NCBI GenBank assembly: GCA_963783885.1
Contig: CAWAPJ010000008.1
Location: 131,878-195,877 of the forward strand
Length of the DNA stretch: 64,000 bases
Source: Waddliaceae bacterium
GTDB lineage: Bacteria > Chlamydiota > Chlamydiia > Chlamydiales > SLFE01
Reading direction: 5' to 3'
Shown: positions 34,101-43,100 of the stretch, piece by piece
How positions within the stretch are numbered: the stretch's first letter is position 1
Layout of the letters: each line of letters begins with the position of its first letter
Program-made: the position numbers

Positions 34101-37100
34101 TCTAATTTCATTTAAAATACCTTTTTTCGTAATTTTATCAAAATATTATTAAGATTTAATAAATGCGATTCAGGATCGGGGAGCTCCGAGCCAATCTAAG
34201 ATGGCTTCGACGGAGGGGTCGATAATAACGGTTTTCTTTTCTTTGCTCATGGTTTCGGCAAGGCGCTCTGGGATGGGGATTTGTTCGTGGACGATAGGTT
34301 CGACGATATCAAGGAACTTGGCGGGGTGGGCGGTTTCGAGCACGATTCCCTGGCATGGATGGGATTTTTGATAGTGCTGCAAACCGAGGTAGCCGACGGC
34401 GCCGTGGGGGTCGAGAATGTATCCGGTTTCATCATAGACTTTCTTGATGCACTCGCGTGTCTGGTCATCCGTGAATGAGGCTCCGTAGATATCGTCTGTC
34501 ATACTTCGGGAGCTATAGAGGCTTTTCATCCGGGCGAAGTTGCTGGGATTGCCCACATCCATGGCATTGGAGAGGGTATGCTTGGACGGCCCGGGTTCAA
34601 ACTGGCCTGTTTTGAGGTACTTGGGGACGACATCATTGATATTTGTGGCAGCAATAAATTTCGAGACAGGAAGGCCCATCTTTTTCGCGATCAGGCCGGC
34701 GGTTAAGTTGCCGAAATTTCCGCTAGGGATGGAAAAGACGGCGTCGTTTTTTTGCTTGAGCTTGGCGTAGGCGTAAAAATAATAAAATGTTTGAGGAATC
34801 AGCCTGGCGATGTTGATCGAGTTGGCGGAAGTGAGGCGCTTGAGTTTGTTGAGCTCAGGGTTTAAGAAGGCTTCCTTAACGAGCGCCTGGCAGTCGTCGA
34901 AGGTCCCTTTCACCTCGAATGCGGTGATATTTTTTCCCAGCGTTGTGAATTGTTTTTCCTGGATTTCACTCACTTGCCCCTGAGGGTAAAAGACCATCAC
35001 CTCGATGCCGGGCACCTGATAGAAGCCCTGGGCGACAGCGCTGCCGGTATCTCCCGAAGTAGCGACAAGAATGGTGAGCTTTTCCTTGTCTTCCCGAGTA
35101 TAGGCGCTCATGAGGCGGGCCATGAAGCGGGCTCCAAAATCCTTGAAGGCCAGGGTGGGGCCGTAGAACAGTTCCAAAATCGAGATGGAGTCCGTTAAGG
35201 GAACCAAAGGGGCGTCGAAATTGATGGCCTCGTCGATGATCTCTTTCAATTGCCGCTGGGTAAGGGCGTCGCCGATCAGGGCTTTGGCTGCCGTAAAAGA
35301 AATTTCCTGTAAGGAAAGATTGGAGATATTGTCGAAAAACTCTCTTGGCAGTTGGGGAATTTCTGTCGGCAGATAGAGTCCTTTATCTTCGGGATAGGCG
35401 TGCAGCACAGCTTCTTTGAGAGTCACCTGATTAGAAGGATCGTTTGTGCTGAAAAACTTCATTGCGTCCTGCATCCTGTTTTGCTGATTTTAGATTGAAT
35501 GATGTCGCAAGGGTATCCTTGTGCTTTAAAGGCGTTCCTCATCGCGTCGCCGACTTTGTGGGCAACTTGAGGGGAGTCGGACATGGCAAAGAGCGAGGGA
35601 CCCGCTCCCGATATCGAGCACCCCAGAGCCCCGGCGGCGAGAGCGGCGTCTTTAACGGCATCGAACCCGGGTATCAAAGGGCTCCTGTGGGCTTCGATAA
35701 TGTGATCTTTTAGCGAGCGGCCGATCAAGGCGCTGTTTTGCATGCAGAAGCCGACGATTAAGCTTCCCAGATGGCTCCATTGCTTTGCGGCGTCTTGAAG
35801 CGGGATTTTTTCAGGGAGAACGTTTCTGCTCTCTTTTGTGTTTAGCTCATATTCGGGATGAGCAATAATCACAAGCAGGTTTTCGGGAAAGGGAAGGCTT
35901 AAAATTTCAGTGCCTCGGATCAGAGTCACTCCGCCAAACAGACAAGGAGCGGCATTGTCGGCATGAGCGGCTCCAGTCATTGTTTTTTCCGCTTCTAGAG
36001 CGAAGACGAGTAGTTCTTCTTTCGGCAAGGGAGAGCCAAAAAGTTCGTTTGCCGCATAAACGGCCGCCGCCGCGCTTGCCGCGCTGGATCCCAGTCCGCT
36101 GCAGAGGGGGATGCCTTTTTGGATTTCGATTTCAATTCCGATTTCTTTGTTTAATTTCTTCAGATATTCGGAAACCGCAATCCCGGCTGTATTTTTTCCC
36201 GCTTCCCTAGGCAGCTTTCCGCCATCTCCTTCGATGTTTTTGATGGAGATGCCGGCGGTGTCTTTTGTTTTCACTCTCACGGTGTCGCCGATCGACTCCA
36301 AAGCCAATCCAAGAACATCAAAGCCGCAGGCGAGATTCGCTACAGTAGCGGGGGCGAATGCGGTGGCAGTTTTTATCGTCATGTTCATCCCTTTTTCTTT
36401 GCTATGAGGCTCAGGCAGTCCCCTCTGTCGGTCAGTCCCGGAGCGCGCATGCCCATCAGGATGCCGTCGCAAGACGAGGGATAAGGTATAGGCGTCTTGG
36501 CGATATCCTGAATATCGTGAATCTGCCCCACGATTTCACCTTTCTTAATGGTGTCGCCAAGCAGTTTGAAGGGTTCGAAAATACCGGAATCGTGCGAATA
36601 AATGTATTGATTCTGAGAGTCGACATAAAGCTGCACGGAAGGCACGGATAATTTTTCGATCTTGCCGGGTATCACTTGAAAATGTTTCAGGATATTTCGA
36701 ATGCCCTGATCGGTAATGGCCACATTATAGGGGGAAATGATTCCCGCTCCTCCCAGTTCGGCGCAGAGAAATATTTTCCCCATCTTTTCCGCGGCGTAGT
36801 CGATGAGGCCGTCGCCGCTGAACTCTTTCATAATCACCTGATAGGGCGCATTGAAAGCAGACAAAGCTTTATGGGTTTGCCTGGATTGCATTTCGTTTTC
36901 CAAATAATGCATGCTGATGTAGGGAACCAGGCTGAGCGACTGTCCCCCTGCATGCAGGTCGATGATGGCATCGGCTTCGGGGAGAATCACATCATGAATG
37001 TAATGGGCGATCACTTCTGTCACAGTACCGTTATTTCGTCCCGGGAAGCAGCGGTTTAAGTCTCTACCGTCGACAGGGGAGACTCTTGTTCCGGCCTGGA

Positions 37101-40100: not shown

Positions 40101-43100
40101 GGTCCGTCCCTTCGAGAGGTTATATGTTTACAGCCTAGAGCCCGAGCATTCGGACGAATTTGCGCACAAGATGTCCGAAGAGCTGGGGGTTAAAGGACAA
40201 AGAGAGGACGATCTTCAGAAATTGGTCGAAACTTCGGATATTCTCATTACCTCTACCCCTTCGAAAAAACCCTATATCAAATCGGAATGGATCCGGCCCG
40301 GCCTGCATATCACATCAATGGGAGCGGACGCCGAAGATAAGCAGGAGCTTCATACCGAAGTCTTCAGCAAAGTGCAGCATATCGTCTGCGATAGCAAGAC
40401 TCAAAGCCTTCGGCTTGGAGAATTGCATCACGCTTATCGGCAAAATATCATCAATGATTCAACTCCTATCCGGGAAATCGGGGAGATTATTTCTGGAAAC
40501 GGCGAACTGAAGAGAAATCCTAAAGATATAACCCTTTGCGATTTGACGGGAACAGGGGCCCAGGATACAGCGATCGCCAACCTTGCTTATAAAAAAGCCC
40601 TGGGGAAAAGGTTGGGAAAAACTATTTGATTATCAGCTTGGGCTCCAGATTGAAAAAACTTTTGGCTCCTTCAGCGGTTACATGGACGGTTTCGGAGAGG
40701 CCCATCACCATAAAGAGTTTAGGAAGCTGCAGCCAGGGGATTAGGTGAAATGTCATATTTTCCTGAATCGGAGTTTTTTCCCCTTGCTTGAAACTCAGGA
40801 TATGCCCCTCATCCCAGCTCGGGGCGAATGCGATGCCGATTGAATAGCCCGACCGTGTGATCTGCGTGGCGCCGATTGTATTGTCGGCGATAATGTCCCG
40901 GCTAATCGAGTCAATACTCTCGATGGGGACCCCGGGTTTCATCGCTTTTTTGCACTCGTTTAGCGCCCTCTTGACCATCTTTTCGGCTTCGAGTAATTCT
41001 TTTGGCGGATCCCCGATAAAAAGGGTGCGCATCATGGCGGTGTGATACCTTTTTTTGCATCCCGCCAGCTCGATGAAAACGCAGTCGCCCTTTTTTATGC
41101 TTCTTCCCTCCCACGTGGCATGGCCGATCAGAGTTCTTGGACCTGATGTTATGTAAGGTGCCACAGCGGGAAACTCGCCTCCCGAACTGTACATAGCGTG
41201 GTGGATAGCGGCCGAAATATCGTTTTCATTGACGCCGGCTTTGACCGCTTCTAGTCCTGCGAGCATAGACTTTTCCGTAATTTCGGCGATTTCCTCCATC
41301 AAACCGATTTCCTGTTCGGATTTGATAATCCTCCCCTTTTCTACAATACCTGTGCAGTCTTCAATCGTATATTCGTCTAGGCAATCCTTTATTTTTTCCT
41401 GAAAATGCATGGGAAGAAAAAAACATTGGGATTCAATGCCTAGAGTTTTTCCTTGAAAATTAAATTCTTTGAATGATTTTTTCGCCACTTCAAGAGGATC
41501 TTCGGTATCGAGATAGGGGCGGGTGAGGTCGATCCAGGTTCTTGTGATGACATTGGACTCCTCCAAAAGACGGGTCACCATCCAGGCGCGCTGAGAGGTA
41601 ATGATTAAAGACTGAAAAGTTCCGTAGCCGGTGGTGAAATATCCTGTTAAATAGGTGATGTTTGCCGGATCGCTCAGCATGACAGCGTCCAGATTTCTTT
41701 CAGCCATGCTGCGCCTGAGCGCTTCGACTCTTCGTTCATATTCCTGCGGTGTGAAGGTAAGATTTCTAAGACTGATCATATTTTGAGCCTTTTCCAAGAT
41801 CTTTTATATTCGTAAATAAGGGTAAATGAGCTTCCAATCACGACAAGCAAAGTGGAAACGATAAGGTAGAGAGAAAATTCCGCGCGGTTTCTCATCACAA
41901 GGAAAAGGATCGACCATATTGGGGTAAAATAAGAGAGAACGCCGAGCAAACGGACATTTCCCTTTTTGACGCCATAATCCCAAAGAGCAAAGGACGTTCC
42001 TGTAATGCAGCTTCCCAAAAATAACAAGAGTCCCCAGTGGCTCGGATTCATTGACACGGAGGATTCGAAAACGCGGTGGCAGATCAGCGATAAAATGGCG
42101 GCTATTCCGCAGCAAATTCCAATCGTATATGGGGGAGCATTTGGATGCCTTCTGGAAAAGATAATATAGCTGGTCCAGCTGAGAGCGGCAAAAATCGCAT
42201 AGCCATAGCCCATAAGGCTTTCATGAAAGAGTCCGCTTGTCTTTGGTTCGTTGAATATAAGAAAAAAAACTCCCGAAAATCCTAAAAGAGCGCCGGTGAT
42301 GTAACTTCCGGAAAATAGCGGCGTTGTTAGGCAGATGGTAAAAAGAGGCCAAAGATAGTAGATGAGGTCCACCTGGGCGGCAGGAGCCAGTTTAAAGGCT
42401 GTTGTATAGGCCGACACATTGCAAAAGAGGCTGAGGATTCCCACAGCCCAAACGCTAAACGGCTGATCGAGAATACTTCTCCACTGCTTCAGAAAAGTTG
42501 CCCAAATGCATGAGATGGCAAACCCTGCGGAAAAATTAAAAAAAAGCATTTGAAAGGTGGGTATTTCATAGAGCTCCACAGTTACTGTGGCCGTTAAGGA
42601 CCAAAAGATTAAAGCCAGTGCTCCGCATAAAGTTGGTGGTATTCGCATACTCTGTCACAATATTCCTATTTTAGCGATTTATGTCCATAATTAATCCTTT
42701 TTTGTAGATAATGGAGCCATGAAAAGATTATTCGGTATTTTATTTTTTATTTTATCCCGAACGATTTACCGTGTCAGGGTTTTCGGAGAACACCATATCC
42801 CAAAAAAGGGTGCAGCGCTTCTTGCGGCAAACCGCCTCTCTTTGATTGACATGCTTTTTCTTGTTCAAAAAACCGGTCGCAAAGTTTATATTCTCATGCC
42901 CCGGCATCTTTGCAGAAAATGGTGGATGCGTCCTTTTGGCGAGCTTCTGAACGCTGTTCCCGTGACGACGACCGAACATCCCGCTGTTTTGCTCAAAGAG
43001 CTTCAGGCCGGGGCCGCCCTGCTTGACGAGGGAAAAGTCGTTTGCCTCTATCCTGAAGAGACCGAAGGGAATTCCGGCTTCATGCTTTCATTTCGGCGCA

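Follow-up and report, generated by a model that had tools for sequence, protein, structure and literature searches.

A chlamydial gene cluster for the probable catabolism of ectoine and hydroxyectoine, with a putative branch from 2,4-diaminobutyrate to threonine

The window analysed, a 64,000-nt stretch from the genome of a Waddliaceae bacterium (Chlamydiota), carries the eight genes listed in Table 1. All eight genes of the first-pass annotation are present as uninterrupted reading frames, and its NCBIfam values were reproduced (DoeA 6.1e-147, DoeB 2.3e-100, PRK08249 above cut-off, thrB, thrC). Rather than one operon, the genes form three translationally coupled units on two strands: PRK08249-doeB-thrB-thrC, eutB-eutC and DMT-doeA. 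The end point first given, 42579, was too short: the DMT gene starts at 42648. A 1-nt gap separates the PRK08249 gene from doeB; doeB, thrB and thrC are joined by ATGA overlaps, in which the thrB ATG overlaps the doeB stop and the second thrC ATG (35462) overlaps the thrB stop. The eutB-eutC junction is a TAATG overlap, the doeA ATG (most likely that at 41779) overlaps the DMT stop, and the 3' ends of eutC and doeA overlap by 8 nt. We infer that eutB starts at 38690, the ORF-finder start (38186) falling within the PRK08249 gene. The divergent gap contains a sigma70-like site (TTGATA-18-TAGAAT, 38628-38657, + strand), which by itself is not significant since 13 such sites were seen against 9.3 ± 3.0 in shuffled sequences.

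Table 1. Genes and intergenic gap of the locus, with family scores (window coordinates)
Feature	Coordinates	Strand	Evidence
thrC, threonine synthase, 434 aa from first ATG	34170..35474	-	TIGR00260 296 bits, cut-off 167
thrB, homoserine kinase, 309 aa	35459..36388	-	NF002288 367 bits, cut-off 194; TIGR00191 above cut-off
doeB/eutE-like Nα-acetyl-DABA deacetylase, 337 aa	36385..37398	-	TIGR02994 2.3e-100, below cut-off
PRK08249 Cys/Met-family PLP enzyme, 402 aa	37400..38608	-	NF006097 712 bits, cut-off 600
Divergent intergenic gap, 81 bp	38609..38689	.	Between PRK08249 gene and eutB
eutB, threonine-dehydratase-like PLP enzyme, 320 aa	38690..39652	+	NF005680 434 bits, cut-off 413
eutC, cyclodeaminase/imine-reductase family, 325 aa	39652..40629	+	NF006141 428 bits, cut-off 408
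doeA, ectoine hydrolase, DoeA_2 (doeBDAC-type) clade, 385 aa	40622..41779	-	NF038259 489 bits, cut-off 575
EamA/DMT (YddG-like) transporter, 290 aa, candidate ectoine importer	41776..42648	-	PF00892; NF050091 210 bits, below 300

Three genomes of the genus, 82-90% complete, were compared: the source (G000, 89%), a sister species (G001) and a second congener (G002, 82%). The cluster was found elsewhere in none of the ~400 chlamydial genomes searched, which bears out its confinement to one genus. The sister species has all of it with the gene order conserved; DNA identity over 17.3 kb is 90.8%, not the 94% first reported. Every gene of that copy is frameshifted, with 2.7 frameshift-type indels per kb; this rate lies within the range of that genome elsewhere (0.9-3.0 per kb across 14 other regions, those of 16 fetched that could be aligned), which points to assembly error. 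The second congener has parts of the cluster, as had been noted: DMT-doeA adjoining aas, and thrC and eutC cut at contig ends. No PRK08249 gene was found in this 82% complete genome. Its eutC has a chromate transporter gene after it instead of doeA, a point against the reading preferred below. All eight genes are under purifying selection, with dN/dS of 0.06-0.17 against the sister species (0.10 for aas, taken for comparison) and of 0.045-0.076 against the second congener for the three testable genes. Three salt-marsh runs from three studies carry the stretch, mostly at an identity of at least 99% and at a depth even with the flanking chlamydial genes. The label 'intracellular' given to the organism is supported only indirectly, by five ATP/ADP translocase-family genes and the known biology of the Waddliaceae.

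The first-pass reading of the locus as catabolic for ectoine and hydroxyectoine is supported. DoeA is below the ectoine-hydrolase cut-offs, that in Table 1 and TIGR02993 (192 versus 613). Its best PDB matches are the Halomonas EutD structures 6twk and 6twj (1e-37), and it falls within a 33-row clade (SH-aLRT 96) that includes above-cut-off members; its nearest identified relative is, as proposed, from the Bdellovibrionota (Halobacteriovoraceae), a weakly supported placement. Residues H226, E243, R315 and Y318 match H238, E255, R326 and Y329 of 6twk and are invariant in 13/13 aligned sequences. DoeA has Gly in the columns of EutD Tyr52 (G59) and Glu374, and is far from the crystallised EutD, which, like the sub-cut-off scores, counts against the reading; the Glu374 column is also Gly in the Marinospirillum and Methylophaga DoeA. 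In EutD these and the matched positions are reported to have active-site roles (Mais et al. 2020). For DoeB the best family is TIGR02994 (336 versus 403), the PDB matches are 3na6 (9e-82) and the EutE structures 6twm and 6twl (1e-79, 3e-79), and the motifs HGGEYEG (63), DLNRCFPG (113), DLHAGG (147) and ELGG (214), presumably those of the EutE/DoeB metal site, are intact. EutB, described as above cut-off, is so for NF005680 and not for TIGR02991 (395 versus 413); EutC is above the cyclodeaminase cut-off and below that of TIGR02992 (385 versus 472). In the source genome neither the EutA racemase for hydroxyectoine (the only PF01177 gene has glutamate-racemase motifs) nor ectA, ectC or ectD was found.

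A tblastn search with single EhuB, DctP and BCCT queries gave no match to an Ehu, TRAP or BCCT transporter in the source genome, and no regulator gene was found in the cluster. The candidate importer is the DMT protein, which has a close orthologue only in the two other members of the genus, the three other family genomes having at most a 35% paralogue. Its best-scoring family is an exporter, which counts against a role in import.

The fate of the 2,4-diaminobutyrate (DABA) that DoeB would release is the point on which the locus seems to depart from known pathways. The absence of doeD and doeC from the cluster was confirmed. In the 89% complete source genome, a search for a DABA transaminase gave only two class-III aminotransferases, HemL and an ArgD/AstC-like protein beside an astA-like gene; the gene of a GabD-like dehydrogenase (41% to DoeC) is on a different contig. 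Homoserine dehydrogenase (Hom, PF00742) was found in 0/5 family genomes, namely the three of the genus and two others, with 14/14 controls positive, although at 82-90% completeness the gene could be unassembled in the genus; it is present in 5/5 other thrB-bearing chlamydiae tested. In 11 other chlamydiae asd or thrA lies directly upstream of thrB-thrC, the place taken in this genus by the PRK08249 gene and doeB. The nearest named relatives of ThrC outside the genus, among matches at 56-64%, are from Bacteroidota, and the 11 other chlamydial ThrC are at 54-59% identity. The missing DoeD/DoeC and Hom had been held to count against the ectoine reading; together with gene context in other phyla, they argue for a different lower pathway, from DABA through homoserine to threonine.

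The AlphaFold2 model of the PRK08249 protein (pLDDT 94) shows the fold of methionine gamma-lyase (TM 0.93), an enzyme that also provides the nearest solved structures; plant cystathionine gamma-synthase (1qgn, 1i41) is close as well. Y60, R62, Y115, D187 and K212 are invariant (97/97) and R374 nearly so. The methionine gamma-lyase Cys is absent from the family (G117 in 88/91 members), and three acids, D113, E240 and E357, are invariant in 91/91, the position of E357 varying in 6 outgroup enzymes. Membership of the methionine gamma-lyases was rejected (TIGR01328, 382 versus 550; YGG for YGC, Asn339 for Ser), as was that of the MetB cystathionine gamma-synthases (TIGR02080, 340 versus 505; no downstream methionine synthase family gene). 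No MetE or MetH/MmuM family gene (PF01717, PF02574) was found in 3/3 genus genomes, which leaves a methionine role without outlet. The family is large: 7,919 of 8,000 scored candidates were at E ≤ 1e-120, a count that includes neighbouring Cys/Met families. Most of its metagenome loci (69/75) are not near doeA, which is nearby in 6/75, and in 4/40 of those of 6 kb or more, the remainder having unrelated neighbours; the substrate may thus be broader or different. The doe-linked copies are scattered across the family tree.

Gene context was followed in 60 regions of up to 20 kb, centred on doeA and chosen by doeA alone. The PRK08249 gene alone was present in 21, a catabolic DABA transaminase gene alone in 12, both in none and neither in 27; atf can sit more than 10 kb away. 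Homoserine dehydrogenase adjoined 14/21 PRK08249 loci versus 0/39 others, and hom plus an aldehyde dehydrogenase gene stood just downstream of the PRK08249 gene in 14/21, counts that are not independent since 20 of the 21 loci are from Bacilli. The gene accompanies doe genes, and doeD is lacking, in Bacilli, Caldilineaceae (an ehuB-PRK08249-hom locus), Bdellovibrionota and a Klebsiella plasmid, the last with above-cut-off doeA and doeB plus ehuABCD. No thrB or thrC was found in the other doeA loci examined.

From these sequence comparisons, a route assembled from several donors seems the probable reading: ectoine to Nα-acetyl-DABA, DABA, homoserine plus NH3, and threonine. Ectoine, and probably hydroxyectoine, would be scavenged and brought in by the DMT protein, the likeliest source being the cytoplasm of a protist host adapted to salt, where it may be made by the host or derive from bacteria on which the host feeds. 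DoeA would open the ring to Nα-acetyl-DABA and DoeB would yield acetate and DABA, reactions known from relatives. EutB and EutC may strip the hydroxyl from the hydroxyectoine-derived intermediate by dehydration and then imine reduction; the chemistry of this pair is unsettled even in model organisms. In place of DoeD/DoeC, the PRK08249 enzyme would eliminate ammonia from the gamma position of DABA by PLP chemistry and add water, giving homoserine, a step that we infer by analogy with canavanine gamma-lyase. ThrB and ThrC would then carry homoserine by standard chemistry to threonine, which the cell could probably not make otherwise, no homoserine dehydrogenase having been found. In Bacilli and Caldilineaceae the same lyase would be followed by Hom and aldehyde dehydrogenase, oxidising homoserine to aspartate. 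The wider proposal, which we hold to be evenly poised, takes PRK08249 for an L-2,4-diaminobutyrate gamma-lyase (DABA + H2O to homoserine + NH3) that has so far gone unrecognised. Such an enzyme may define a second lower branch of ectoine catabolism, one without a transaminase, in Bacilli, some Chloroflexota, Bdellovibrionota and Klebsiella plasmids; the chlamydial genus would have joined this branch to thrB-thrC, with thrA replaced, regaining threonine synthesis from a host osmoprotectant.

An unlikely alternative, yet the foremost, is that the enzyme acts like the methionine gamma-lyases nearest to it in structure, turning DABA into 2-oxobutyrate and two NH3 for energy and nitrogen, with thrB-thrC as passengers or fed by imported homoserine. 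2-Oxobutyrate is a side product of even canavanine gamma-lyase, and two Bdellovibrionota genomes (G405, G406) have the lyase, no detected Hom, and loci devoid of thrB/thrC; this leaves unexplained both the hom and aldehyde dehydrogenase genes downstream of the lyase and its coupling to thrB-thrC in the place of thrA. We consider it improbable that the substrate is a different cyclic amidine or an N-acyl diamino acid and the genes divergent paralogues. The sub-cut-off DoeA and DoeB, the lack of a known ectoine transporter or regulator in the cluster, and the mostly doe-unlinked PRK08249 family would fit, but five ectoine-cluster families occur together, a DoeA of the same clade (46%) adjoins above-cut-off ehuB and ehuC, the clade holds DoeA of Methylophaga, which has doeBDAC enzymes with 80-81% identity to those of the tested strain, and the holders of the stretch are salt-marsh runs. 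It is more doubtful still that the main substrate of the lyase is Nγ-acetyl-DABA, the other DoeA product, which DoeB does not deacetylate; acetamide and homoserine would be released, with threonine again as end product. Halomonas DoeA yields both isomers (PMC7192451), the γ isomer builds up in Ruegeria on ectoine (PMC8739950), and it bears the free alpha-amine required by PLP; DABA from DoeB would however have no outlet, no DoeD being found, and the tested doeBDAC-type DoeA gave the alpha isomer only. Very improbable is a transaminase making aspartate semialdehyde from DABA for reduction by Hom: the Bacillota gene after eutD-eutC is labelled 'atf' in PMC13188858, but that slot is PRK08249 in the loci examined here, the protein has the fold and residues of gamma-lyases/synthases, and in the chlamydia, where no Hom was found, the semialdehyde would have no way to ThrB. 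It is hardly credible that the enzyme is a genuine cystathionine gamma-synthase of the plant type, with no tie to the doe genes, that takes O-phosphohomoserine from ThrB towards methionine: the family name, the plant structures and the coupled thrB favour it, but methionine synthase and Hom were not found, doeB stands between the two genes, and a separate MetB/CGL-type paralogue lies on contig C38.

If correct, the preferred route through DABA and homoserine would extend ectoine catabolism to Chlamydiota, which go unmentioned in the main text of an April 2026 EutD survey (PMC13188858). It would assign a function to a large PLP family, explain the hom and aldehyde dehydrogenase genes of Gram-positive ectoine clusters, and describe a symbiont making an amino acid from a stress protectant of its host, whose salt tolerance could be affected. 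Threonine synthesis was lost in the chlamydial ancestor (PMC9816063). No report of chlamydial ectoine catabolism, or of a DABA-homoserine-threonine route, was found in the literature searched; in PMC11317633 the word 'ectoine' occurs once, as a row of a table on biosynthesis pathways, with nothing on catabolism.

Like eutABCDE-ssd-atf of Ruegeria pomeroyi and Sinorhizobium meliloti and doeABXCD-eutBC of Halomonas elongata, the cluster groups DoeA/EutD, DoeB/EutE, EutB and EutC homologues. Unlike them it has no Atf/DoeD, Ssd/DoeC, EutA, EnuR/AsnC or Ehu/Ueh, its DoeA is of another subfamily, PRK08249, thrB, thrC and DMT genes are added, and the predicted end product is threonine instead of aspartate. 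With doeBDAC of Methylomicrobium alcaliphilum 20Z and Methylophaga (PMC7192451) it shares the clade of the Methylophaga DoeA (51% to P0088); there, however, DoeB is an M20 amidohydrolase and not, as here, of the aspartoacylase type, DoeD/DoeC accompany it, and ectoine is made by the cells themselves. In the putative Bacillota clusters pucR-eutBCD-'atf'-abgB-thrA-adh, the slot after eutD-eutC is, in the loci examined, a PRK08249 gene (62-76% identical) adjoining homoserine-processing genes; in PMC13188858 it is read as an aminotransferase and hom is given no role. Those of Bacilli, with hom and aldehyde dehydrogenase, would lead towards aspartate, whereas the chlamydial thrB-thrC would lead towards threonine. 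The DMT protein CTL0843 of Chlamydia trachomatis, a SAM/SAH transporter that takes up a host metabolite (PMC3104491), is a precedent for the direction of transport only. A chemical precedent is canavanine gamma-lyase of Pseudomonas canavaninivorans (PMC9533460), which has a methionine gamma-lyase-like PLP fold, forms homoserine by gamma-elimination and addition of water, and is co-induced with Hom and aldehyde dehydrogenase. Its substrate differs, its leaving group is hydroxyguanidine, on oxygen, where ammonia is proposed here, and the cluster contains no guanidine-exporter or ABC operon of the canavanine context; the likeness noted is one of fold and proposed chemistry.

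The eight genes that the first-pass annotation had grouped as an ectoine/hydroxyectoine catabolic cluster are eight uninterrupted ORFs, and rescoring gave the same family values as before. Their arrangement is detailed in the table. The genome (G000; 2.16 Mb in 46 contigs, 89% complete, 0.03% contamination) was compared with two others of the genus, G001 and G002, all three being incomplete. G001 has the same eight genes in the same order (90.8% DNA identity). Its cluster shows 2.7 frameshifts per kb versus 0.9-3.0 per kb genome-wide (14 aligning regions of the 16 fetched). The dN/dS values of the cluster genes were 0.06-0.17 against G001 and, for doeA, the EamA/DMT transporter gene (DMT) and eutC, 0.045-0.076 against G002. 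We reject the view that the cluster is decaying in G001, because its frameshift rate matches that of the rest of that genome and dN/dS is low. The cluster is genuine and maintained.

Features of the cluster and of other genes (window positions, except where a G000 contig, C14 or C25, is named)
Feature	Position	Strand	Remarks
Eight-gene cluster	34170-42648		
Lyase-doeB-thrB-thrC unit		-	1-nt gap and ATGA overlaps
Lyase gene	37400-38608	-	PRK08249 (NF006097)
eutB-eutC unit		+	diverges from lyase unit across 81 bp; TAATG overlap
DMT-doeA unit		-	converges on eutC; ATGA overlap
Three-gene run	25232-30348	-	GH63/MGH1-like glycoside hydrolase (902 aa), short-chain dehydrogenase, GMC oxidoreductase; GC3 at 92-99th genome percentile
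PP2C phosphatase gene	30505-31908	+	long N-terminus without assignment
PP2C gene and two ORFs flanking thrC	30505-34111		ORFs (563 aa, 170 aa) without family match
Coiled-coil-like protein gene	45541-50979	-	1812 aa
Repeat	46769-48253		8.8 copies of a 168-bp (56-aa) unit
proB-proA-proC-like run	C25:21096-24221		from ORF starts
Arginine succinyltransferase-like run	C14:33632-37235		from ORF starts

The cluster and its flanks were found at similar depth in one soil run, possibly the source, and in three salt-marsh runs, which come from three studies (4 of the 12 runs listed), and most pieces from these four runs match the cluster stretch at 99% or above. Short contigs join thrC to its 170-aa neighbour and the DMT gene to the flanking gene aas. 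Even depth and bridging contigs at both ends make a chimeric contig unlikely, even if no single piece covers the whole cluster. Synonymous divergence from G001 (window 34170-44902) is uneven, i.e. 0.04-0.07 for eutB, the lyase gene and doeA and 0.26-0.33 for thrC, thrB and aas, which suggests that the two species recently recombined in the core of the cluster or that the assembly is mixed. DoeA, ThrC and the lyase have JGI relatives that are 77%, 76% and 85% identical, and a single congener contig is suggested to carry all three. The rise in GC content is mild, the six cluster genes that were scored lying at GC3 percentiles of 39-99. There was no RNA dataset among the runs listed as containing the stretch, and promoter and terminator scans remained at chance level.

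The cluster most likely degrades ectoine, and we hold this substrate assignment with high confidence. The DoeA score is under both family cut-offs; in the tree, the protein falls within the DoeA_2 clade (33 of the 57 rows, SH-aLRT 96), together with Marinospirillum and the compared locus L016 (above cut-off), Methylophaga and one Caldilineaceae DoeA, the latter flanked by ehuB and ehuC, both above cut-off. By alignment, residues H226, E243, R315 and Y318 correspond to H238, E255, R326 and Y329 of 6twk (EutD), and differences are seen at the Tyr52 and Glu374 columns; we take the compared positions to be important in ectoine hydrolase. DoeB is close to solved EutE structures. The doeBDAC enzymes of Methylophaga share 80-81% identity with their M. 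alcaliphilum counterparts, and PMC7192451 gives Nα-acetyl-DABA (DABA, diaminobutyrate) as the experimentally determined product of M. alcaliphilum DoeA. EutB and EutC point to a probable use of hydroxyectoine as well. The steps for that compound are described as still uncertain in Ruegeria (PMC8739950, in part), growth of Halomonas on ectoine is described as unimpaired by eutBC deletion (PMC3187862, in part), and no EutA was found in G000. Nor was any notable homologue of ectA, ectC or ectD found there, so the solute must be taken from outside. According to PMC5924519, halophilic protists either synthesise ectoine or take it up. The DMT protein is a candidate importer on three grounds: the coupling of its gene to doeA, its restriction to the genus and the chlamydial DMT importer on record (PMC3104491, in part).

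No DoeD candidate was found in G000, either in the cluster or elsewhere in the genome. In the established routes, DABA is converted via Atf/DoeD and Ssd/DoeC to aspartate. The cluster has instead a lyase gene, encoding a Cys/Met-family PLP enzyme. A search for doeA in 251 Bacilli-class, 300 gammaproteobacterial, 151 alphaproteobacterial, 201 Bdellovibrionota and 201 Chloroflexota genomes gave matches in 22, 19, 22, 2 and 3 of them, respectively, the five groups being named after their centre loci. We retained 60 regions (21 Bacilli, 18 Gammaproteobacteria from 17 genomes, 18 Alphaproteobacteria, 1 Bdellovibrionota and 2 Chloroflexota), leaving aside four centre genomes already among the loci, genome G760, four weaker alphaproteobacterial matches and most second copies. 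The lyase alone was present in 21 regions, a catabolic transaminase alone in 12, neither in 27 and both in none; for the 27 regions bearing a deacetylase the figures were 15, 6, 6 and 0. These counts are not independent, since Bacilli predominate among the regions. Six Bacilli ectB genes were not scored as catabolic because of the ectA-/ectC-like ORFs alongside (confirmed by scan for locus L151). Homoserine dehydrogenase (Hom) accompanies the lyase in 14 of the 21 lyase loci versus none of the 39 other doeA regions, the usual order being lyase-M20-hom-aldehyde dehydrogenase. The layout with lyase and without doeD also occurs in Caldilineaceae, in Bdellovibrionota (L013, L015, L173) and on a Priestia and a Klebsiella plasmid; a lyase copy on a Chondrinema plasmid is without doe genes.

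Among 390 chlamydial genomes scored, 13 have thrB. In the 11 outside the genus the gene upstream of it is asd-like (8) or thrA-like (3), as judged from ORF starts (a scan confirmed one asd), and Hom was present, in long thrA-size frames, in all five of these genomes that were tested; in G000 and G001, lyase-doeB lies upstream. Hom was not found in any of the five family genomes, so ThrB must obtain its homoserine in another way, and the lyase coupled ahead of thrB belongs to a family that sits with Hom elsewhere, which supports a swap. Elsewhere in G000 there is an asd gene as well as a short ORF resembling aspartokinase, and no methionine synthase was found in the genus genomes.

Gene context thus indicates that the lyase would be the enzyme converting DABA to homoserine. 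The best explanation, which we consider reasonably probable, is that ectoine is degraded, that the PRK08249 PLP enzyme would turn the resulting DABA into homoserine and that the thrB-thrC products would carry homoserine on to threonine. Several observations count against this reading: for 69 of the 75 metagenome loci of PRK08249 no doeA lies in the vicinity, the neighbours of such loci are mixed (97 scanned of 215 extracted), two lyase-bearing Bdellovibrionota genomes are without Hom, and each of the three genus genomes is incomplete.

A few side observations concern the other lyase carriers. A PRK08249 homologue (63%) is found in 27 Klebsiella and 1 Pluralibacter plasmid records among 34 matches. 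The Klebsiella plasmid locus L108 (NZ_CP013713.1) carries eutC-eutB-ehuADCB and doeA-doeB-lyase, with no doeD within the stretch shown; the place of enuR is taken by a divergent PLP-domain gene. Klebsiella is unmentioned in the main text of PMC13188858. The three loci of predatory Bdellovibrionota are compact doeA-doeB-lyase clusters where, as in the chlamydia, no adjoining ectoine transporter gene was detected. Both may tap the ectoine of other cells; DoeA_2 was found in only 2 of 201 Bdellovibrionota genomes.

The proposed confinement of the cluster to this genus held among the genomes sampled (41 for DoeA, 401 for DoeB), no other chlamydia having a match at the DoeA or DoeB level. DoeB-level matches (>200 bits) were limited to G000 and G001 (2 of 401), G002 not being among the listed matches, and 54 other genomes had distant homologues (93 bits at most). 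DoeA-level matches (at least 78%) were seen in 3 of 41 genomes, all in this genus; the remaining ones did not exceed 29%, save one short off-frame fragment within the G001 gene. Of the 14 control genomes, Haloferax volcanii alone matched the DoeA model as well as the DoeB model, below cut-off. G000 has five ATP/ADP translocase-family genes and the 14 controls none; the order of the Waddliaceae infects mainly protists, according to a section of PMC9816063. As to origin, the cluster is a mosaic whose donors are not fixed by the trees. Named lyase matches are mainly from Chloroflexota and Bacillaceae (73-76%), with no supported sister group in a quick tree. DoeA has relatives at 49-55%, and its sister group consists of two long-branch rows from Halobacteriovoraceae (SH-aLRT 83). 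Named ThrC matches are from Bacteroidota, and ThrC lies among Bacteroidota-like rows, apart from other chlamydial ThrC (support 88, the non-chlamydial rows having been picked by query similarity).

Other genes deserve mention. The MGH1 domain of the three-gene run is named after mannosylglycerate, also a compatible solute, and owing to this link the run may be another acquired module for scavenging. In the repeat, backward jumps of 168 and 336 bases occur in contigs from two runs and the G001 alignment shows offsets, hinting that copy number varies. The 170-aa ORF beside thrC has a dN/dS of about 1.2 versus G001, with few changes. The proline that the proB-proA-proC-like run would make could help the cell to balance its own osmolarity.

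Literature searches, which covered neither subscription papers nor supplements, returned no report of a DABA-homoserine route or of chlamydial ectoine catabolism. The ectoine clusters of PMC13188858 come from Proteobacteria, Thermodesulfobacteriota, Bacillota, Actinomycetota and Archaea. None of the strings 'chlamyd', 'Bdellovibrio', 'cystathionine' and 'lyase' occurs in its main text, and the Bacillota layout it presents there has 'atf' and thrA-adh, with no homoserine-forming step given. The newer point is how the pathway would end: DABA to homoserine to threonine. The AlphaFold2 model of the lyase, built on an alignment of 97 sequences (pLDDT 94), shows the fold of methionine gamma-lyase (about 40% identity), and no closer solved structure was found. 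The PLP residues are intact. Within the PRK08249 family the methionine gamma-lyase cysteine is missing, Asn replaces a conserved Ser in 84 of 91 sequences, and D113, E240 and E357 are invariant; these three residues, E240 and E357 being placed in the active site from the alignment, are consistent with a substrate having a basic side chain. A known parallel is canavanine gamma-lyase: according to PMC9533460, this enzyme of the same fold eliminates the gamma-substituent and adds water to yield homoserine, and Hom is induced alongside it together with an aldehyde dehydrogenase.
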